A stretch of 62,694 nt of DNA, the filler included, from Globobulimina sp. (lineage: Eukaryota): the NCBI GenBank assembly GCA_003354225.1. It is 14 parts of 14 records of this genome, joined end to end, with 100 filler letters (N's around TTAATTAATTAA, not from the genome) between each part and the next. Parts side by side here need not be neighbours in the genome. Positions count along the whole stretch, not along the records: positions 26,925 to 31,310 come from PIVH01001294.1; 13 more parts are not named here. One strand, given 5' to 3'. The position numbers were made by a program, and so were the translations under genes. The notes below the pieces were generated by a model. The model saw nothing but the letters and a program-made list of their open reading frames with translations. It was not told where the DNA came from and searched no databases. Below, piece by piece: positions 5,965 to 51,399 of this stretch; position 1 is the first letter of the stretch, and the number at the start of each line of letters is the position of its first letter.

Positions 5965-6122
5965 AATATGTTTAATAATTATGAGTCGATCATCTCGTCA
6001 CTAAAGTTTTTTTTCTCTTTTCAGTGGTGTTGTCATCTTTCATCTATGCAGAGTCACCAAGATAAATCATAATCGATAATTAATACTCCGTATACGTATT
6101 GTATTAATCAATATTAATTGAG

Positions 6123-7664
6123 ATGAAAAATCTAGCCATTAAAATAAAGCGTAAATTTTCGCAAGAACGATCAGGCGCATTGAACAAAAGTGATTCTAGT
6201 TCTAGTTCTGGTTCTAATTCTAATTCCGAGCTACGAGGCAGTCGAATGAGCGGTAATGTATCGAATACAGCAGAAAACAGTGCAAGCGGCATGAATAAGA
6301 GCGCATTATCTAATAAAGCATCAGTAGAAGGCAGCGCCAGTTTGAGCCGAAGCGGAAGCGCAAGCGAGGATATTCCGAATAAATGCTACAAAAAAGAAGA
6401 TTTACTGAAACAAGTGGCCTCTCTCAGAGAAGTGGCACCGGAAAAACGTAAAAATTTGTTTGTCAAAAAGCTTCGATTATGTTGTGTCATATTTGATTTT
6501 GGGAATGAATCGCCATCGGAAAATTTAGGAAAAGAAATGAAACGGCAGATATTATTAGAATTAGTGGATCATGTCACGACTAATAAAGGTTGGTTTTCAG
6601 AGAAAATATTACATGAAATATTACGGATGGTATCGGCGAACTTATTTCGTTCATTATCACCGTCACTAAAATATGATTATGATCCGGATGAAGATGAACC
6701 GACTTTAGATTCGACCTGGCCGCATTTACAAATTGTATATGAATTCTTATTACGATTTATCGTTTCGACTGAACCAGATCCAAAATTATTAAAAAGACAT
6801 TTAAATGGTCCATTTATCTTAAATATTTTACGTATTTTTCACTCTGAAGATCCGCGGGAAAGGGAATATTTAAAGACTATCTTACATCGCATATATGGTA
6901 AATTTATGAGTCTGCGCTCATTCATTCGTAAATCGATAAATAATGTATTTTATTGCATAATATATGAGAATGAGAGACATAACGGAATCGGTGAATTATT
7001 AGAGATCTTAGGAAGTGTAATAAATGGTTTTGCAATACCGCTGAAATTGGAACATAAGAAATTTTTACGAAATGTTTTATTGCCTTTACATAAAGTAAAT
7101 AGACTGCAGACATTTCATCAGCAATTATCGTACTGCATCACTCAATTTATTGATAAGGACAATCAATTGGCGGTCATTATAATTGGTGGTTTGATCAAAT
7201 TTTGGCCCATTCAAAATTCATCAAAAGAAGTGTTGCTATTAAACGAATTAGAAGAAATTCTCGAAGTTACGCCGATGCCTCAATTAAAAAGCTTTTTAGT
7301 GCCAATATTTAATCGATTGTCCACATGCATTCAAAATCAACATTTTCAAGTGGCAGAAAGAGCACTTTTCTTTTGGAATAATGATTTAATTGGCAGTCTA
7401 ACACAAGCTCATAAAAAAATTGTATTTTCTATTATTGTACCTTCGTTACATCAAATTAAAGAAACGCATTGGAATGCTACCGTCCATTCATTATCATTAA
7501 ATGTGACCAGAATGTTAATTGAAATCGATACTAATTTGTATACAAAAATTGTAAATCATTATACAAACAATAGACCCGAACAAACCCGATATAAGCAAAG
7601 AAAACAAAAATGGTCAAAGTTAAAACAAATTGCTAAGAAAAATACTAATAATACCAAACGATAA
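6123..7664 (+). CDS. Protein phosphatase 2A regulatory subunit B' (B56 family)
   Basis: DEDEPTLDSTWPHLQIVYEFLLRF, SEDPREREYLKTILHRIYGKF, HFQVAERALFFWNN. Confidence 0.97.
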   Translation: MKNLAIKIKRKFSQERSGALNKSDSSSSSGSNSNSELRGSRMSGNVSNTAENSASGMNKSALSNKASVEGSASLSRSGSASEDIPNKCYKKEDLLKQVASLREVAPEKRKNLFVKKLRLCCVIFDFGNESPSENLGKEMKRQILLELVDHVTTNKGWFSEKILHEILRMVSANLFRSLSPSLKYDYDPDEDEPTLDSTWPHLQIVYEFLLRFIVSTEPDPKLLKRHLNGPFILNILRIFHSEDPREREYLKTILHRIYGKFMSLRSFIRKSINNVFYCIIYENERHNGIGELLEILGSVINGFAIPLKLEHKKFLRNVLLPLHKVNRLQTFHQQLSYCITQFIDKDNQLAVIIIGGLIKFWPIQNSSKEVLLLNELEEILEVTPMPQLKSFLVPIFNRLSTCIQNQHFQVAERALFFWNNDLIGSLTQAHKKIVFSIIVPSLHQIKETHWNATVHSLSLNVTRMLIEIDTNLYTKIVNHYTNNRPEQTRYKQRKQKWSKLKQIAKKNTNNTKR

Positions 7665-26924: not shown

Positions 26925-27608
26925 GGGGCAGCATGGGAGTTAATAAAATATTTTTTGCCATAGAAAAATATCATTATTTCAATTAATACGGTTGGTACAC
27001 CGCCCACATACTCATTTAGCTGTAGATTGCGTTCGCGTTCATGAATGTAACCAAATAATAATAACGATACGTCATCTCTTTTTTGTGTATGATTGTCATT
27101 GTTTGTGGTGTAAATAAAGCGTTGCCCACTGAATATGTAATTGCTCTGTGACACAAATCGCAGTGTAAAATACAATTCAGTCTGACAGAGAAATACCACA
27201 TAACTTTTGCAGGCTGTGATGGCGGGGATTTTGCATCAATGAACATATTTTTTATGATTCTGTAAATTTCATCATTTTGTTTTTGTTTGTTAATTATTGG
27301 TTTATTGAAGGGGAATAAGTGGTTATCGTCTTGGTCTAAATCGAAATCAATAAGTGAGCATTCTGATGGTCCAACTTCTAATTCTGATTCAATGTCTTCA
27401 TCATCAATACCTACATTCGACCGATTTTCGGAATGTTGTTAAGAACTAGTTTTTGTTTAAACAGAGAGAAAAACATACCATTTTCTGAACAATACAAGAC
27501 AAATTTTCCAATGTTATCATCATTAGTGTAGCTGTTAATTGATTTTAGGTTCTTAAATAGGTTGTAATATGTATGGAGGGATTTGTCTATTTGTTTAATG
27601 ATTGACAT
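26925..27608 (-). CDS. Hypothetical spliced protein, 3' partial
   Basis: Intron 27411-27478 keeps frame (YCSENG/IDDEDIESEL); later segment LLFGYIHE...VPTVLIEIMIFFY. Confidence 0.55.
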
Positions 27609-27850
27609 GGCTTTTCAATGATGAATGATTTACAGAGGGAATGTTTTTTTACTTAATATCCTACGATGTTTTGAATAAAACTTTACAAATATATTTATCC
27701 TGTAAAGTCAAATCCAATTCTTCACGAAGATGAAAAAGAGTATAGATCAGATGTGCAAGGATAAATACATCATAAAAACGAAAATATACAAAAGAGAAAA
27801 CGTTAACCACAACAAACGAAAGAAACCAATACAATGTTTATATATAATAT

Positions 27851-28594
27851 TCATTGGTTTATCCGTTTTTTGTTCCCCCTCAAATATGCTCCATACAATT
27901 GATATAACATATTTTCATCATTATCACCATATTCATAATAATCGTCATCATCATCATGCAATTCATAATCATTATAATCAACCTCTCCGATATGGGATGA
28001 ATATGAAAACCTCTTCCATTTAATTAAACTCTCTCCATCCTTTTTGGCAGCGTTCCGAAATGAAAACCTATCACCATTTGGCATCTCTGCATAATAATCC
28101 TCGGTTTGACCCCATTGTTTTAATAAAAATGCGGCATTATGTTCCCCGCGATTAGAATGAACCATTTCTGTGCCATATGGGTTTATATATTGCCATGCTT
28201 TGCTCATTAAACCACCCGAAGGATTCTTTAAAATTAATCTTTTTATCACTTCGATTTTCAGTCTTCTTCGATTTTCAAAAAAACTGCTTCTACCATTTTC
28301 TTTCATTGCCAATCGTTGCATTTCCCATTCTAATTTGCGTATTTTTTCCGCTTCTGTGCCTTTTATGAATTTAATATCTTCGCCTTGTTTCACGATCACT
28401 TCTAAAGATTTTTTAGATGAGTGCTCTCGCATTTTTTTCGAATCCCAATGCGAATTAACATAGTTAAATCTTATTTTTTTGGCATTTTTACCAGCATTGT
28501 TAATTTTTACGCTGTCCAAATATGTGATAGCGTCGGAGAGTGTTATAAACAAAAGAAACAGCCATGGCCACCAAGCTCTAGAAACCATGATCAA
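27851..28594 (-). CDS. Predicted secreted protein with acidic Tyr-rich C-terminal tail
   Basis: Signal-peptide-like WWPWLFLLFITLSDA, internal RRRL site and DYNDYELHDDDDDYYEYGD tail. Confidence 0.65.
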   Translation of the reverse strand: MIMVSRAWWPWLFLLFITLSDAITYLDSVKINNAGKNAKKIRFNYVNSHWDSKKMREHSSKKSLEVIVKQGEDIKFIKGTEAEKIRKLEWEMQRLAMKENGRSSFFENRRRLKIEVIKRLILKNPSGGLMSKAWQYINPYGTEMVHSNRGEHNAAFLLKQWGQTEDYYAEMPNGDRFSFRNAAKKDGESLIKWKRFSYSSHIGEVDYNDYELHDDDDDYYEYGDNDENMLYQLYGAYLRGNKKRINQ

Positions 28595-28794
28595 TTAACT
28601 AAAAAGTCGACAATAATTATATTATTTAATATTATTATAATGTAACGAAAGATGAAAGTGTTTTATATATACTGTATATTGTGCTGGTATATTTATCTAA
28701 CCTCTGTAAGAATAATTCATTAAAAACCTTTAGTTCAACAACCTTAGCTTACTTCTCTCTGTTTTCATCTAATCCTCTCTGTTTTCAAACAATT

Positions 28795-31124
28795 ATGACT
28801 GATGTTAACAATCTTGCAATAACCACACATTCTGCATGGTTATCAACTGCTGCATCACAGATATTCTTTATGGAATTAGGTATGTATTGTACGGAACTAA
28901 GGATCTACGGATCTATGCCTCTCGATAGCTATGCCTCTCGATATCGATATCGATATTTAGGATTTTTATGTTTAGAAGGCGGTTATGTTCAACCTGAATA
29001 CATACAGTCGTTAATAATAAAAAACATTGAAGATATATTTTTTGGTTTTACAACATATGCTGTATTTGGATATGCCATCGTAACCTACAATTATGAATAC
29101 ATTGCATTATATAACTTGCCATATTCTGAATGGGATTCAGTATTTGTTAACGCTGCATTTGCAGCAACAGCCGCGACTATTATGTCCGGTGCAATCTTAG
29201 AAAGAATGAAAAACATTGCATATTCTTTGTGGGTATTTGTCATAATATTAATAAACTATTCATTTATATCTCGCTGGATCTGGGAAAAAGATGGCTGGTT
29301 ATTCCAATTAGGTTTCATTGACTGTGCAGGCTGTTCCGCAGTGCATATGGTTGGCGGTATTGGCGGATTAATATTATGTTATTGTTTAGGTCCAAGATAT
29401 TCCTCTTTGCAGCATGTGAATGATCCGATGGACCAACATACGAAGACATTGAAAGAAAAGCATGCTCCGAGACAGTTATTGATAATGATCATGGGTTTGT
29501 CAAATCTGTTTTTTTTATGCACTTTAATTATTTAACTCTACTCCGTTCTGATTGTATTCTTTTCTTTTCAGGAACGTTAATTTTATGGTATGGCTGGGTC
29601 GCATTTAATACGTCATCACCAATCATAGCAGATGTTGGTATTGGTGGTAATGTTGGCGTAGCTGGCTTATTGACTGTAATATTGCCGTCGTGTTCAACTG
29701 TTTCAACCTACGCAGTAACATACTTACAATGGCCGAATTGGAGAATGTTAACAAACAAAGGCATAAAGCCAGGCACACCAATTATTGAAAGAAGCTCAGA
29801 AAATTTATCTATTGCTGTTTTAAGTGGTTTGGTGGTGGTCACTGCGTGTTGTTACACAATTAATTTGATATTAGCAATAATCATAGGTTTACTTATTCCC
29901 TTTCCAATATTTTGGGTATCATATTATTTACGTTCCAAATGGAAAATTGATGATCCCTTAGATGTAGTGGCAATACATTTGTTTGGTGGCATTATTGGTT
30001 TATTAGTTGAAGGTTTATGCAATTTGGATCACGGATTATTGACAACTGGGCGATTTAAACATTTCTGTGTACAATGTTTAGGCATCGCAGTGACTTTAAT
30101 ATTAAATGTTGTCTTGGATGTAATGTGGTGGTTAATGTTTAAACATATAATATTTAGAAACGCAGATATTAAAACAACGCCGTTATCGATTTGTTTGAGC
30201 ACTTCGAGACATAATGTTTTTATAATGGATTATGGTTTGGCTTTCAAAGAACTTATATTTGGCGATACTAATTTCTCCCGATCGTTATTGATCAAATTTC
30301 GTAGATATTTAATGAGTATTTATTGTGATGAACAATTAGATTTTTTACTGGCTGTGTATCAATACAGAAAATTATTTGAACAAAAAACGAGTTAAGTACA
30401 CATTATACATTGCTTATTCTATCCACATGTACGTGTTTAAAATTAAATAGCTTTGACTGGAATGCTTCCACAAAATGAACGTAAAACTCCGGTGATTATT
30501 CAAACACAAATGAAAAGAACAACGTCAGCGAATACAACGTCTATTACAAAATCAGACATATCAATTACAACCAATTCGGTGATTAACGATCTTTATAATA
30601 TTACTAATAAACAAATTAATAACTCGTTTACTTGTATTTGTAATTTGTATATTTTAAATGATTCCAGAAAACAAATTAATATTTCGTCAGCTGTAAAGAA
30701 ACAAATTATAACAAGATATGATGAAATAAATAAATTAAAAAAAGTAAAAAAAGAATATTCAGAATTAGTTGATATCGATAATGGTGTTGGTGTTGGCCAT
30801 AACGAAGGGAAAGAGAAAGATGAATTAATTGACACTATTATTGATAAAACAGTGTTTAATAAGGCTTTTATGGAAACGTTAAGATTAACTCAACATAATT
30901 TAAAAGTTTTTTTACAAAAGAATCATGGCGACCCATCATTGCAAGTTGAAAGGAAGACGCATGAAATAATATATGGCGTATGTACTGATACATATAATGT
31001 CGAGTGGTTTCATGAGCAAAACAATAATATTCAAATGTCAACAATAAAACCAGCAATTAAAAAAGCGCATGATATATGGACTTTTAAAAGCGTTGAAGAA
31101 GAGATTTGTGATATATTAAGTTAA
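28795..31124 (+). CDS. Ammonium transporter (Amt/Mep) fused to a C-terminal RGS domain; 4 exons, 703 aa
   Basis: Exons 28795-28879, 28961-29494, 29572-30390, 30451-31124, all GT-AG and in frame. Amt motifs FMELGF..LEGG, FAATAATIMSGAILER, DCAGCSAVH, WYGWVAFN, DDPLDVVAIH. RGS motifs FRRYLMSIYCDEQLDFLLAVYQYR, LYILNDSRKQINIS, VFNKAFME. Confidence 0.9.
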
Positions 31125-31212
31125 CACCTACCTTTTTTAATTTTTTTTTAATGTATATAATATATTTTCTACATATAATAACTTCATTTGTTCCTCTCGT
31201 TTTATATTATAT

Positions 31213-31310
31213 TATTACATTTTCAGTTTTTATAACAACAAGTTGTTTTTTTTTGTATATGAAATTTCAAATATAACTTTTTTGTTTGAGAAAAGTTATT
31301 TTTTTTGTCA
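31213..31310 (+). repeat. About 100-bp dispersed repeat shared with 39011-39120 (inverted)
   Basis: tattacattttcagtttttataacaacaagttg...gagaaaagttatttttttgtca matches the reverse complement of 39011-39120 with a few substitutions and one indel. Confidence 0.9.
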
Positions 31311-31430
31311 NNNNNNNNNNNNNNNNNNNNNNNNNNNNNNNNNNNNNNNNNNNNTTAATTAATTAANNNNNNNNNNNNNNNNNNNNNNNNNNNNNNNNNN
31401 NNNNNNNNNNGGTAAATCGTTACACATATC

Positions 31431-34400
31431 CTTTTTTTTTTTCGATAATTTTTTTTTTTGAAAGAAAGAGACCATTAAAAACTTATGGAATCTATGAAAT
31501 TAATTAAATAGGTTTGCATCAAACCACACAGTTACAATGTATACATATTCAAACAAGAACAAAATAACAAATGAAACATGCTGTCAATACACAAATAACT
31601 GGCAGACCCATTACGAAATATATGATACTGTATTTAAATATTGATACTTCACTAACTTTGCTTAAACCGATCTGTCTTCATTGTTATAGATCGAATAATG
31701 GTGTAACAGCGACACGGCGTTCGCTTTTTGCAATTTTGCTGAAATGAATTCGAAACAATATCCTGTTGATGTTGAGATATCATCATTGATTGAAGCTGCT
31801 CGTAGCTTCGCAAGTCTTTTGATAAATTTTACAGTTTGTTTATGCATTCCACCGTAATCTTCGAAGATGAGTGGTAGATAAATCAAACCATTAATCTTCT
31901 CACGGTTGTCGTGCAAATAATTCTCGTATTTGTTTATCTTGTGATTATAAAAGTTATTCGCCGCACTTAGTTTCTTTGTCGCAGCACTCTCAAAACGACT
32001 GTTGCAGACTACTGAGGTTACTCCGATGTCGACGGCTAGCGCTTCACCGTTGAGGCCCCAATTATTGATATAAATGTCGGCGGGTTTCATGTTGTTGTTG
32101 TCGAAAAGATGTCTTTTTTCAATGGAATGTTTGATATTGGCGGTGGTCAATAGGCGCGAGATACCATCGACAATCAAGTCGTGTTTATATATGATTCCTT
32201 GGCCATGTTTGCAAATTACACCATGGTCGCCATATTCATCAATTTGACTCTCACAACATATGCATTTTTCGTTGTTGATAATTAATTCATGTCTCAATTT
32301 ACGTTTGAGCAATATCCGGAATTTCGGATTGCTATAAATCATGCCGTAGCCATTCGACATCGGCGCATTAAGCCACGCGTTCGCGTTCCTATTGCATTGC
32401 GAGTAGAGCGCGGCTTTATGTTTACCGGACTTTGTAGATAACAGCCGGTTTAATTGTAGGGACTGTATTGCATTGATCATCCATTTCGTAGTATGGACAG
32501 CTGGGTCAAAGTCCGCTATGTAGTATCGCGCCGAAACTGAGGCGTTATACAAAGAAATCGCATATACAATTCGCTCATCAATGATTTTCATAAAATCCTC
32601 ATAAATCTCAGAATCCAGTAGTTTTTTACATATAGTTTTCGCGGCAAAGACCGATGGTAAATAGATCGCGCTAATTTTATCCGTTGCGGTGCGCATACCC
32701 AAACCAGCTTTTTTTGTCGATAGACTGCAATGTAAAAATTCATCATCCGATAATATAAAGCCTCCCATTATCGATAGCAATTCGCGTAAAACGGTGTCGT
32801 ATTTCCTTGCTACCATTAAACTGATATTAGGCGGCAACGAATTAAACCAATAGGCCATGCAAGAAATATTCACATAGTCCTTCATAACTTTGCATTGTAA
32901 GTGCACCAAGTCCAATCCTGCGATTTTATTGATGCTTTTCTTGATTTCATTTATTTTATAATCCATTTGTAATATAACATATTCCTCTGAACCTATCGGA
33001 ATGTTCAGGCATTCGGAGTTTCCATTTTGTTTGATTTTAAATTGTCTCAAATCATCAGATAATAAGTCCCAGATCGCGTCAATGCTGCCACTGCACGTTA
33101 ATACACTTTTGGATTCATTGAGAATGAAACCAAAGACGGGGCCTAATAATTTGACAACTGTGATGAAAATATTTGCGTCGGCAATTGTCATCAATTCAAA
33201 TGTGTCATCCACGTAACCGGCCTCGCCCAATTTTTTAAAGTCCGGTTTGATTTCCAGACATTTCTGCAGTACCAATTCATTGAAGTGTTTGGAGACAACG
33301 GCAGTTATGGTATTTGACGACGTGCTGCCTTGGCCCAGTCCTTCTTCGTTGGCTAACCACTCATTATTTGCCATATAGATATAATATGGTTTGTGGTACA
33401 GCTGAAATGCCTGCGGATACATTGTCGGCACAACGCGATGGATCAGGTCCAATGTGATTTTCCTACTGACGTTGTTGAAGAAATTACGCCAATCCTTTTG
33501 GAGGATGACGTATTCCGGGTTCTTCTTAATGAAATTAAGGGCGCCCTCGAACGCCATGACCATGCCCTGCGACCCGGATTTGTCCGCACTTATTTGCGTG
33601 GGTTCAATTGCGTTTTTTATCTGCGGGGCGGCTAAGTCCTGGCCAATCATCGTAGAGATTGTGATTAATGAGTTACTGATGATAATGGGACGAATGTCAT
33701 AAAATTTCCCATTCTTAATTTTATTCGCTGGGACCAATTTGCCCCCATTTATATACGGCGCCACCTCCTCGTTCATCCGGCCATTTATCATAAGTTTGAA
33801 AATCGCTTCGAATGCGTTTTCCAGCTCGGTGCCGGCTCTCTGTTTCCAGAGTTGTATAATATGATTATTTGAAATGCCGATGATTCCCGGCGCCGAGCAG
33901 TCATTTAATTTTTTAATGAATTTGTCAATGACTCCGGTTTCTATCTTCTTTGTTATGTGCTGATCCGTAATGGCCTTTTTCTCCACAATTTCAGCAGCTT
34001 CATTTTTTCGGGATCGCGCAGGTCTGCGATGCCATTGCTATTAATAATATTCAATGCATCCCTTGTATGGCCCCTTGCGACTAATTTCTTGATTTTGTCT
34101 ATCGTTTTGCTTGCAAAGATGCCATTTTTGTTGCTGAGGGTGCTCTTCTTTAAGATATACGATTCGTTGCTGTCTGGGATGTCATGGACCATCTAATGGT
34201 ACATTTCAATGATTTCATCCTTCGCAATGCGATCCATTCTCTTTTTCAACGTGTTGTAATTCCTCTTATTATTTCCGCGTCCGCCACGTTTAAATTTGGC
34301 CAATCCGACTCTCGCAAATAACGCTAATTTTATCCACGAAATAAGATCGTTGTTGACAATCACGCTTCGAATGAGGTATACAAACGTTTTGATCACAAGT

Positions 34401-35795
34401 TTGCTGAAACGGATTGGAATATTTTCCATCCATCGCAGTTTACTGAACCAGATGTTGTTGAATGTGGGCGTCGTCGTGTTCTGCGTCGCTGATTGAACCT
34501 CGACATGCATTTTTTGCTCATTTATTTGCGACATTGAGGGTTCGTTCAGATCTTCAATCGACGGCTTATTTAATTGCTTAAATGTTGCAAACGTAATATT
34601 TTTCGTGCATTCGGTGCAAAATGCATTTGGATCAGATTCGGCTAAGAGCGTCGTGCAATTGTCAGTGTCGCACAGTTTCTCCCGAAAAACACTAAAATAT
34701 TTCGTATTTACATGGTCGGCATCGCCCAGTTTGGATATAATATGCTTCGTTAATGTCGAGCGTCTCAACCAGTTCTTTTTGTGTGCTTCGCAATTCGCGA
34801 TGTCACATTTGTACGTATTACGGCAGCCATCTGTTTGTATACAATTTACGCAATGCCATCGGTTATAGAATAGCGCGGAATTTGCATCAATGTCAACCCC
34901 ATCGAATTTGACTTGCGTCTGACACTCGGCACAGACTATAAACTGTCTTGCCGTGTCACTTTGGGCTGTTTCTGATACGTTGGGCGCTTTTTGGGTCGCG
35001 TTTACATCCAAAACTATCGGTATTGGCTGCTGCTGATTTACATTTGCTTCCATTACACCTAAATTTGCCACCTTGCCACCATCGTTGTTCCCATTTGCCA
35101 TCCTTTGATCCCCCGCATCCGTTACATGCATGGTACGAACGACCATGTCATCATCGTCTTCACTTACAACGAGATCGGTCGTTTGTTGTTGTCGTACCTG
35201 ACTACACACAGTACGTCGTTTCCTCTGTGCCGGAATGTCACAGTCATCCCCCTCGGGATTGTTAAAGGTCACTCGATTTGCTTCCGGTTCAATGGCATTG
35301 TATTTGCGTTTCCGGCCCTGTTTCCGTCGTTGTTTGACACGGTGTGCTATGTTGTTGGTGCCATCGCAATCGCCGTTATTGGGCTCATCATTGAACCACA
35401 GGTCAGTTTGTGTCGGCGTTATAATATTCGCTGTGCAGTCATATTGTGTTCTTGCTTTATAGTATAGATCTCGGTGATAATTGTTTAGAAAATCTGGGGG
35501 CGTTTCCCAGTTAGATTCCAAGCTAAAAAGATGTTCATTGCGCGCCTCGTATTGCGCAAATGATTCGCCTTTGCATTCTATGAAGTCGTCTGTCTGAACG
35601 CCATTCGACTCTGTTTCTAATATGTTATGATTGCACGTGTTCACAATGTCAGCATTGTTGGCAGTGTGCACTTCCTCGCATGATTTGTTGTTGGTGTTTA
35701 AATGTTTGTTTTTGATCTGTGTCATTTGCTTATTTTTTATGAGGGGTTGTTTGGGTGTTTGATGCTTCATTGTTGTATAAAGTCTGGATAGATAT
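31431..35795 (-). mobile_element. CRE-like (RLE-endonuclease) non-LTR retrotransposon, decayed
   Basis: N-terminal zinc-finger motifs; RT (IRPIII, GLGQGS, YVDDT); CICC..HGVIC knuckle with KHD; RLE KPADI..AVDIGV..KINKY..PLIFEDYGG; A-tracts after the 3' UTR at 31431-31459. Confidence 0.9.
31662..35770 (-). pseudogene. Retrotransposon polyprotein (ZnF-RT-RLE) with one stop and one frameshift
   Basis: In-frame TAG at 34193-34195 between ORFs 34193-35770 and 33953-34192; frameshift near the A6 run at about 34003-34008 into ORF 31662-33986. Confidence 0.85.
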
Positions 35796-35895
35796 NNNNN
35801 NNNNNNNNNNNNNNNNNNNNNNNNNNNNNNNNNNNNNNNTTAATTAATTAANNNNNNNNNNNNNNNNNNNNNNNNNNNNNNNNNNNNNNNNNNNN

Positions 35896-49656: not shown

Positions 49657-51399
49657 ATGTCTTTTTTAGCGAGACTTCGTAAGGCAGCACGAGCATGTTA
49701 TAGCCCATATGCTTTTAAATCAAGGTAAAACAATAAATTCATGCCATGTCAAATATCTGTCCACGCTTAGAATAAAAACAAAACAAAACAAAACAAACAC
49801 ACGACAGAGCCATTTCTAGCATTTCTAGCATCTGCAAAACACGAACACGAACACATATTCGTACCACAAAATTTCAAAAATACCAATCACATTTTAAAAC
49901 ATCCCCAACACAAACACTATTTTCTCGTTTTGCATCATTCTCAGCCAACCAAACAGCTACATATACGCAGCAAAACCGAGCAATTCAAATCGATGCAGAT
50001 ACCAAAGAAATCCCACCCAAATACCAGCCAGATCCTGAAATCGGAAAACGTTCCACTTTCTCAATCACCACCACAGATTATCCAGGCGCTCTTGCCCAAA
50101 TGTTGCGAATCTTAACGTTTGTGCGGTATCTAACACAAAAACAAAACAGTTTTCACTTACTTGCTTACTTAAAATGCTCAGCGAAAACGATGTAAACATG
50201 ACACGTATCGAGTCGCGCTACGGTCAAAAAGCAACACAAGTCAACTTCATAATCGATTGCGATGTGCCAGCCAATCATCGCAGAGTCGCTCAAGCTTTGC
50301 CTTTACTTAGACAAAACTCCATCGATGCTCGCTTAGTCCCCTCCATTAAAGTGCCATGGTTCCCTGTCACTGCTCAAGAAGTCGATTCTGTCGCTCTACT
50401 CGTCCTCGACGAGTCTGACTTAGAAGCGGACCATCCTGGCTTCCATGACCAAGAGTACAAAAAACGGCGAGCTAAAATCACTGAGTCGGCACAGAATTTT
50501 ACATACGGCGATGTTCCAATGACCGTCGATTACTCTCCTCAGGAAATTGAGTGTTGGAGTAAGATTTGGATGCAACTAAAACCGAAATTATATGAACATG
50601 GCTGCAGTCAATATATCGCTGCCTTTGATGGACTCGTCAAACATTGTGGTTATAAGAAAGATAAAATACCGCAATTATCGGATGTTTCTGCCTATTTATT
50701 GGATAAAACTGGCATCAAATTACGGCCAACCGCTGGCTTATTGTCGTCGAGACATTTCCTAAACGGATTGGCGTTCAATACGTTTTTTTGTACGCAATAT
50801 TTACGACATCATTCAGTGCCGTTTTATACCCCGGAACCGTTACGTTACTGTGTTCTAAGTCCGATGTCTGTGCTGTTTATATATAATAACGTTTTTATAG
50901 TGACGTAGTGCACGAATTGGTGGGCCATGCGCCGATGTTCGCGGATCCAGAATTTGCGAAATTTTCGCAAGAGATTGGCTTGGCGAGTATTGGTGCCACG
51001 GATGGACAGATTGAAGAATTGGCGCGCTGTTATTGGTTCAGTGTAGAATTCGGACTTTGCAAAGATGAGAGTGGCGATCGCAAGGTTTACGGTGCGGGCA
51101 TATTATCGAGTTATGGTGAGATCGATTATTGCATGTCTGAGGAGCCAGAGGTAAGGAAATGGAATCCATGGAATGCATCAAAACAAACGTTTCCGATCAC
51201 GAAATATCAGCCGGTGTATTATTTGGCCGACGGATTTGATGATGCCACGCGGAAAATGCGTGGCTTTGCCAACTCATTGGATAAGCCATTTACTTGTCGA
51301 TGGAATGATGTTAAGGAGAGATTGTCGGTGGATCGCAATGTGCAACGGATGGAAAGGAAAGAGGATGATTATGGGGAATATATTGGGGAGGCGGAGTGA
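49657..51399 (+). CDS. PAH: Phenylalanine hydroxylase-like pterin-dependent aromatic amino acid hydroxylase with ACT domain
   Basis: Introns 49725-49807, 50117-50181 and 50839-50900 are in frame. ACT PGAL..TRIESR; HPGFHD; TQYLRH; YTPEPDVVHELVGH; YWFSVEFGL; YGAGILSSYGE. Confidence 0.92.

Follow-up and report, generated by a model that had tools for sequence, protein, structure and literature searches.

A single transcribed gene of Globobulimina sp. joins an ammonium transporter-type pore module to a conserved, RGS-like C-terminal domain

Two bacterial proteins in which an Amt-type ammonium transporter module is fused to a signalling domain have been described, namely Ks-Amt5, an Amt-histidine kinase fusion (PDB 6EU6; Pflueger 2018, PMC5764959), and Sd-Amt1, an Amt-HAMP-diguanylate cyclase fusion (PDB 8QJ3, 8QJ4 and 8QPF; Pflueger 2024, PMC11152129). 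According to the available portions of these papers, on which all citations below rest, both proteins are ammonium receptors that retain all of the pore motifs and carry two extra ammonium sites, N1 and N2 (PMC11152129, PMC5764959), and in Sd-Amt1 the helices near the C-terminus differ between the ON and OFF structures (Pflueger 2024, PMC11152129). On the G-protein side, RGS domains are fused to transmembrane domains in most lineages, and to seven-transmembrane (7TM) domains in many, as stated in the available portion of a survey of G-protein-coupled receptor (GPCR) systems (PMC3971589). Here we describe a gene of Globobulimina sp. (assembly GCA_003354225.1) that encodes an Amt module joined to a conserved C-terminal helical domain with likeness to RGS. 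The gene lies on the part of record PIVH01001294.1 that occupies positions 26,925-31,310 of the window, by which we mean the whole stretch of DNA analyzed (62,694 nucleotides, in 14 parts of 14 records joined end to end); all coordinates given below count along it.

The joined coding sequence comprises 2112 nt on the + strand, from an ATG at 28795 to a TAA stop, encodes 703 residues, and is interrupted by three introns. Contigs from four public sequencing runs (X5-X8) were compared with the gene over 28650-31250, and its parts are as follows.

28752-28794, + strand: 5' untranslated region; the spliced contigs of X6 and X7 both start at 28752, right after adapter-like letters
28795-28879, + strand: exon 1, residues 1-28 and the first base of codon 29, holding the start of the first transmembrane helix (TM1) of Amt; covered by spliced contigs
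28880-28960, + strand: intron 1, 81 bp, GT..AG, skipped in the X6 and X7 contigs; the Pfam Amt match begins only 3' of it
28961-29494, + strand: exon 2, Amt TM1-TM5 with E34, K49, N50, D53, F95, T101, S104, W136, D149 and H157; PF00909 at E 4e-31
29495-29571, + strand: intron 2, 77 bp, GT..AG, skipped in the X6, X7 and X8 contigs (two studies)
29572-30390, + strand: exon 3, Amt TM6-TM11 (W215, F218, S222, T297, H342), linker and RGS-like block 1; PF00909 at E 5.7e-20
30391-30450, + strand: intron 3, 60 bp, GT..AG, with three in-frame stops, skipped in the X6 and X7 contigs
30451-31124, + strand: exon 4, an open frame to the TAA

The X6 contig (2347 nt, organism label C) spans 28752-31217, and thus covers the 3' untranslated region to 31217; the three stretches that it lacks, of 81, 77 and 60 nt, have exactly the borders predicted for the introns. 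All three introns are also skipped in the X7 contig (1621 nt, from a sample shared with X6), and the 77-nt intron is skipped in an X8 contig (155 nt) from another study and with organism label A; the X5 contigs held nothing on the splicing of the gene. The label 'RNA?' that X6-X8 carry is a guess, and no run is recorded as RNA. A cDNA is the simplest account of an intron-less contig that starts at 28752 behind adapter-like letters in two runs, with a processed DNA copy as the formal alternative, and the transcript start is likely to lie near 28752. Intron 1 is itself open and in frame, and its removal is evident from the transcripts only. Since the spliced contigs lack exactly the three introns across the whole gene, the joining of Amt and tail is not an artefact of assembly or of prediction. 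Moreover, exon 3 is one open frame that matches both PF00909 (profile positions 197-376 of 399) and the RGS profile (positions 14-40), so that the fusion is independent of any splice prediction. The first-pass annotation of this DNA had put forward the same 703-residue frame with the same three GT-AG introns and had placed the end of Amt and the first RGS helices together in exon 3; both proposals are borne out, and the intron-less contig continues past the RGS-like exons with no chimeric join. The observation of an Amt module fused to a conserved C-terminal helical domain is confirmed, and the gene is a single transcribed unit that encodes a 703-residue membrane protein.

The relative seen in these contigs is ~95% identical to the window gene, with other letters at 19 of 537 positions in exon 2, 38 of 820 in exon 3 and 39 of 669 in exon 4 (~4-6% per exon). 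Forty of the 97 differences are listed, and 33 of them are synonymous and seven are not, with 33 of the 40 at third codon positions; this count is restricted to the Amt part, within which all 40 lie, and holds no differences from the tail. It suggests that the Amt part is under selection. The tail indels keep the frame (+15, +27 and -6 nt); gap letters in exon 4 total 66, and the 18 left over lie together in a single jumbled patch. A difference of 33 nt across the stop codon shifts the end of the protein, by our reading, by a residue or two only.

Pfam profiles were searched with exon translations and pieces of them rather than with the joined 703-residue protein. PF00909, whose cut-off is 23.2 bits, matched exon 2 at 108.6 bits over profile positions 15-190 and exon 3 at 71.8 bits over positions 197-376 of 399, and the N-terminal ~397 residues clearly read as a complete 11-helix Amt-type pore module.

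28795-30143, + strand, introns included: Amt/Mep/Rh module, residues 1 to ~397; the last hydrophobic segment ends at about residue 397

The joined protein was aligned to E. coli AmtB, translated from its locus. The AmtB residue numbers carry an offset of 22, which we take to be the convention in use and which agrees with the residues found. All nine of the AmtB pore residues examined are retained, including those that the first-pass annotation had picked out by eye (F95/F218, W136, D149, H157/H342 and S222).

AmtB F107 corresponds to F95: Phe gate, kept
AmtB W148 corresponds to W136: outer Trp/Ser site, kept
AmtB D160 corresponds to D149: conserved Asp, kept
AmtB H168 corresponds to H157: twin His, kept
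AmtB W212 corresponds to W215: kept
AmtB F215 corresponds to F218: Phe gate, kept
AmtB S219 corresponds to S222: outer Trp/Ser site, kept
AmtB T273 corresponds to T297: kept
AmtB H318 corresponds to H342: twin His, kept

Relative to AmtB, E34 stands in place of Tyr32, the loops at about residues 177-198 and 258-285 are extended, and the one that follows helix 2 is shortened. In a collection of 5.8 billion proteins, exon 3 retrieved seven Amt matches of 'near' length, with the best relatives 25-32% identical, and one Amt-only match of 'longer' length at 31% identity; the best relative is from the green alga Nephroselmis pyriformis. The Amt module is, judging from these identities, very divergent. 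Hydropathy gave no membrane segment beyond residue 400, and the C-terminus of Amt proteins is cytoplasmic according to the available portion of a review, so the tail should face the cytoplasm. A stretch of 36 nt within exon 3 (29575-29610), which encodes the Amt motif around the second Phe-gate residue, is matched in all four runs by deeper contigs with unlike flanks, and related organisms probably carry further Amt paralogues.

Among PDB sequences, the best match of exon 2 was Sd-Amt1 (8qj3/8qpf, E 4.6e-14) and that of exon 3 was Ks-Amt5 (6eu6, E 8e-10), both ahead of AmtB; the phmmer scores against the Sd-Amt1 and Ks-Amt5 entries were low, at 56 and 42 bits. The N1/N2 positions were mapped by an ungapped alignment to Sd-Amt1 together with the published residue list.

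Sd-Amt1 F25 corresponds to F30: kept
Sd-Amt1 E29 corresponds to E34: kept
Sd-Amt1 K44, the switching lysine, corresponds to K49: kept
Sd-Amt1 N45 corresponds to N50: kept
Sd-Amt1 D48 corresponds to D53: kept
Sd-Amt1 T104 corresponds to T101: kept
Sd-Amt1 S107 corresponds to S104: kept
Sd-Amt1 Q22 corresponds to E27: changed
Sd-Amt1 F49 corresponds to I54: changed

Sensor Amts are further marked by a transducer module fused at the C-terminus, and a conserved soluble region of ~280 residues follows TM11 here in the same exon and transcript.

This region begins past a linker and contains, within ~215 residues, a helical domain whose three conserved blocks are set apart by two variable insertions. 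Exon 4 searched against 1.84 billion representatives returned a sole match (E 6.4e-9), P0002, a 302-residue 'hypothetical protein' encoded on a 1084-nt metagenome contig. P0002 is contiguous over the position of intron 3, has its stop at the same place as the window protein, and opens with the very Met that corresponds to M425, the residue at which block 1 starts. The layout of the tail and its identity to P0002 are as follows.

30144-30224, + strand: linker, residues 398-424 (~27 residues), at the place of the canonical Amt C-terminal region; absent from P0002
30225-30386, + strand: RGS-like block 1, residues 425-478; 36/54 identical to P0002
30451-30617, + strand, with its first 4 nt at 30387-30390: insertion 1, residues 479-535, rich in T, N, S and I; 8/43 identical to P0002; the relative has +15 nt in frame
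30618-30737, + strand: RGS-like block 2, residues 536-575, with the KQINISS motif; 17/40 identical to P0002
30738-30848, + strand: insertion 2, residues 576-612, charged; 12/35 identical to P0002; the relative has indels of +27 and -6 nt
30849-30932, + strand: conserved block 3, residues 613-640; 16/28 identical to P0002; predicted contact with block 1
30933-31124, + strand: C-terminal region and TAA, residues 641-703; 7/50 identical to P0002, followed by the end motif

Neither the linker nor the tail aligned with the C-terminal region of AmtB. The protein ends in an acidic motif (31083-31121, residues 691-703) that closes with D-I-L-x and is identical to the C-terminus of P0002 at 9 of 13 positions; it may be a sorting or docking signal. 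The start of P0002 reflects either a truncated gene call or the occurrence elsewhere of the RGS-like module as a separate protein or transcript. Metagenome scans yielded no confirmed locus for P0002 (one scan had a poor pattern), and a search for its homologues of 'longer' length gave no matches. The family thus looks very narrow, with one distant homologue and three closely related organism labels among the runs; as neither module has close relatives, the lineage seems to be one that has been sampled poorly.

We consider it quite probable that the tail is a divergent RGS domain, that is, homologous to RGS. With E-values taken over 24,736 families, RGS (PF00615, cut-off 23.9 bits) was the sole Pfam match both of block 1 (55-residue query, E 0.0054, 17.5 bits, profile positions 14-40) and of block 2 (50-residue query, E 0.036, 14.9 bits, positions 43-82). 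The two blocks do not overlap and their matches to the RGS profile are colinear, with the same result from whole-exon queries; for a single family already named by block 1, the E-value of block 2 amounts by our own arithmetic to ~1.5e-6. RGS was likewise the top Pfam family of P0002 (E 0.03, 15.1 bits), in one stretch over positions 15-82. All four of the PDB sequence matches of block 1 at E <= 10 were RGS2 or RGS4 (E 0.11-1.3), and in a search with a profile of the tail RGS2 ranked at the top (E 0.15). It matched in two stretches that are colinear, and in the second of them the KQINISS Asn, conserved in P0002, lies on the Asn of KEINID in RGS2. The conserved Asn in the loop between helices 5 and 6 of RGS domains contacts the switch regions of G-alpha. 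A search for the RGS family in E. coli and 14 control genomes gave no matches. In the ESM-Atlas, the nearest clusters of P0002 were RGS (score 0.86), and the ten best family-bearing matches all agreed, which we treat as a lead only.

Structure prediction with ESMFold2 placed block 1 against blocks 2-3 with an ipSAE of 0.70 (best control, 0.02); the mark applied is attained by 51 of 78 complexes with a solved structure, as against 2 of 108 mismatched pairs. Three runs shared at least 85% of contacts, the partner had a pLDDT of at least 74, and the last helix of block 1 is predicted to touch both block 2 and block 3. The predicted packing may reflect likeness to solved RGS folds; such likeness would itself point to RGS, and the packing is not independent proof. 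The RGS motifs and the two insertions that the first-pass annotation had read in the tail are present as described, while the profile support for them falls below the cut-off; similarly, of the two domains it had named, Amt scores above its Pfam cut-off and RGS below (17.5 and 14.9 bits against 23.9, on exon pieces). The tail is therefore best called RGS-like and not an RGS family member.

What best explains the findings overall, with the chances evenly balanced, is an Amt-RGS-like ammonium transceptor or receptor acting on G-alpha. The Amt trimer, a property of the family, would place three RGS-like domains under the membrane beside G-alpha subunits. Occupancy of the pore and of the neighbouring N1/N2-type sites by ammonium would shift the helices adjoining the C-terminus, following the pattern of Ks-Amt5 and Sd-Amt1, and this movement would alter the access or the activity of the RGS-like domain toward G-alpha-GTP, much like the plant 7TM-RGS receptor that acts as a GTPase-activating protein (GAP); that ammonium may gate GAP activity in this way is only what we infer. 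A more specific version, which we offer tentatively, is a non-GPCR eukaryotic ammonium receptor wired to heterotrimeric G-proteins, in which the RGS GAP activity of the trimer would be switched by occupancy of the pore and of N1/N2. Such a receptor could parallel, in eukaryotes, the Amt-kinase and Amt-cyclase proteins of bacteria, with the receptor-GAP principle of plant 7TM-RGS proteins arising independently a second time, a possibility that we regard as doubtful. No G-alpha was found in the window among 30 scanned open reading frames (of 39 of at least 150 residues) and the three of this gene.

Several observations weigh against the transceptor/receptor reading, and they bear on its two main alternatives. 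The stronger of these, itself rather unlikely in our estimation, is that the protein is a working ammonium transporter, either with an RGS-like tail that serves in regulation, scaffolding or trafficking without GAP activity, or with binding of G-alpha-GTP controlling transport. The acidic-Asn motif that precedes the block-1 helix and would contact G-alpha is partly changed, reading D-E-Q where RGS2 has E-E-N. The roles of the E-E-N and Asn residues are known from the RGS4-G-alpha literature. With D-E-Q in place of E-E-N and the Asn kept, the tail may or may not be a competent GAP. The RGS-homology domains of GRKs are an example of a module without GAP activity. The GPCR-system survey reports that certain RGS domains no longer act as GAPs and serve as scaffolds (PMC3971589), and the acidic motif conserved at the end of the protein could direct sorting. 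A transporter would have its canonical C-terminal regulatory region replaced by the tail, and that region is indeed unaligned, with linker and tail in its place; all of the pore residues needed for transport are retained. The N1/N2 residues, for their part, would fit a receptor or transceptor and do not separate either from a transporter. The published N1/N2 signature, Q-x6-E-x15-N-x2-D-[FT]-x54-60-T-x2-[ST] (Pflueger 2018, 2024), is incomplete here, with E27 for Q, I54 for F/T, and a spacer of 46 residues vs 54-60. In addition, plant AMT1 transporters and Drosophila Amt sit in the N1/N2-bearing cluster (Pflueger 2024, PMC11152129), and the residues are no proof of a receptor because proven plant AMT1 transporters carry them too. 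Against a transporter with a GAP-inactive tail, the window protein and P0002 both keep the Asn that pairs with the catalytically important one of RGS2, and the closest solved Amt relatives are receptors, not transporters. A receptor and a transporter with a scaffolding tail are both compatible with the sequence, which does not tell them apart.

A second alternative, which we judge improbable, is that the helical domain of the tail is specific to its lineage and has no kinship with RGS, the likeness of block 1 having arisen by chance or convergence. Every RGS score lies under the curated cut-off, no contiguous sequence attaining 23.9 bits (17.5 for the best piece, 15.1 for P0002), and the signal comes mostly from one motif of ~30 residues. 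Block 3 and the C-terminal 94 residues had no Pfam match even at E 10, and neither block 2 nor the whole of exon 4 had matches among PDB sequences. A PDB sequence search with the whole of P0002 retrieved no RGS and only a kinesin coil (E 0.2), which we take as spurious. In the Atlas, exon 4 alone led to bacterial hypothetical and Cap4-type clusters with low recognition and not to RGS. Nor do the models confirm the nine-helix bundle of RGS: AlphaFold2 gave a mean pLDDT of 38.0 for P0002 (3-row alignment) and of 58.5 for blocks 2-3 of the window protein, and a Foldseek search with the weak model of blocks 2-3 returned 47 rows at E 2-10, none of them RGS and none at E <= 0.001; these models are too weak to count for or against an RGS fold. 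Conversely, two independent pieces of the tail match the same single family out of the 24,736, and do so colinearly, P0002 matches RGS across both blocks in one stretch, and the halves of the domain are predicted to pack as one. The identity of P0002 to the window protein peaks in the two RGS-like blocks and drops in the insertions. As to the fusion itself, its conservation is seen in close relatives only, and P0002 neither confirms nor denies it. That the fusion is an artefact of chimeric assembly, of read-through between two genes or of a decaying pseudogene is scarcely credible and largely refuted, even with runs of N 190 nt past the stop and with guessed 'RNA?' labels, as the end of Amt and block 1 share one uninterrupted exon, contigs of another organism label and study carry the joined, intron-less form over 28752-31217, most of the listed differences are synonymous, and the tail indels keep the frame.

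The window as a whole has 35% G+C and 1144 N, and holds ordinary eukaryotic genes, namely of the PP2A-B56, Nup96, AAA_11 helicase, SPRY, rhomboid, WWE, Kelch, biopterin-dependent hydroxylase, PP2C, kinesin and Di19/BED zinc finger families. Near the Amt-RGS-like gene and elsewhere in the window, the following were observed.

27851-28594, - strand: a divergent 247-residue open frame without a Pfam family, ~200 nt upstream of the gene start; a promoter region common to both is possible
31312-31410: two runs of N flanking a short TTAATTAATTAA stretch, 190 nt past the stop, which could be read as an assembly gap or as masked sequence; the PIVH01001294.1 part ends at 31,310
31662-34037 (791 residues) and 34193-35839 (548 residues), - strand: open frames without a Pfam family at E <= 0.001; the first shows by eye a YVDD-like motif, typical of reverse transcriptases, and the two may be a mobile element
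6108-7664, + strand: PP2A B56 subunit, apparently intron-less, E 1.3e-155
50039-50908, + strand: biopterin-dependent aromatic amino-acid hydroxylase, E 3.9e-60; with the PP2A B56 subunit, a potentially useful marker for placing the organism against a reference set

Full-text searches of the literature, with figures, supplements and domain-architecture databases outside their scope, found no Amt-RGS fusion, in line with the first-pass annotation, which knew of no such architecture. In one paper that names both an ammonium transporter and an RGS domain, the link between them is transcriptional only. The main text of the GPCR-system survey (PMC3971589) contains neither 'ammonium' nor 'Amt', its supplementary figure of transmembrane-RGS proteins lying outside the search, and the domain organizations of eukaryotic Amt proteins listed by Pflueger 2024 (Fig. 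7B and supplements) likewise lie outside the scope of the novelty search.

The significance of the architecture is conditional on the RGS assignment and on biochemistry. How eukaryotes sense ammonium, rather than import it, is a matter of debate that concerns the Mep2 transceptor, plant AMT1 and insect Amt in olfaction, and the two bacterial Amt fusions show that the channel scaffold can be converted to a receptor. If the transceptor/receptor reading is true, an Amt-RGS fusion would name its downstream pathway outright, namely G-alpha, would provide a directly testable system, and would extend the logic of the receptor-GAP beyond 7TM proteins. If instead the tail is a GAP-dead scaffold, the gene would be a natural case of a foreign domain replacing the Amt C-terminal regulatory region.

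Compared with known eukaryotic Amt proteins, the window protein stands apart by its fused domain. In fungal Mep2 the C-terminal region is canonical and controlled by phosphorylation. Mep2 shares with the window protein its membership in the eukaryotic Amt family, and signalling in addition to transport has been proposed for it (available portion of a review); it differs in having no fused signalling domain and in belonging to a cluster without N1/N2 ligands (PMC11152129). Plant AMT1 and Drosophila Amt, which form 'cluster 2' of Pflueger 2024, share the N1/N2-type residues and a Glu in place of the pore-lining Tyr; they too have no fused domain, and the window Amt is only ~31% identical to its nearest database relatives. 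Closer in layout are Ks-Amt5 and Sd-Amt1, with which the window protein shares an Amt module bearing a C-terminal cytoplasmic signalling domain, the canonical pore motifs and most of the N1/N2 ligand positions. It differs from both in that it is eukaryotic and encoded by a spliced gene, in that its output domain is RGS-like and not a kinase or cyclase, and in the changes of Q22 to E and of F49 to I, the shorter loop and the low identity. With 7TM-RGS proteins of the AtRGS1 type, which act as GAPs beside G-alpha, it shares a polytopic membrane module followed by a cytoplasmic RGS or RGS-like domain, whereas its membrane part is an 11-helix Amt and not a 7TM module, and its RGS-like domain is far more divergent and carries two insertions. 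The protein may thus work like the 7TM-RGS receptor-GAPs but is not a member of their family. Within the literature searched, the Amt-RGS architecture is undescribed, and it would combine two known designs, the sensor Amt with a fused transducer and the receptor-RGS.

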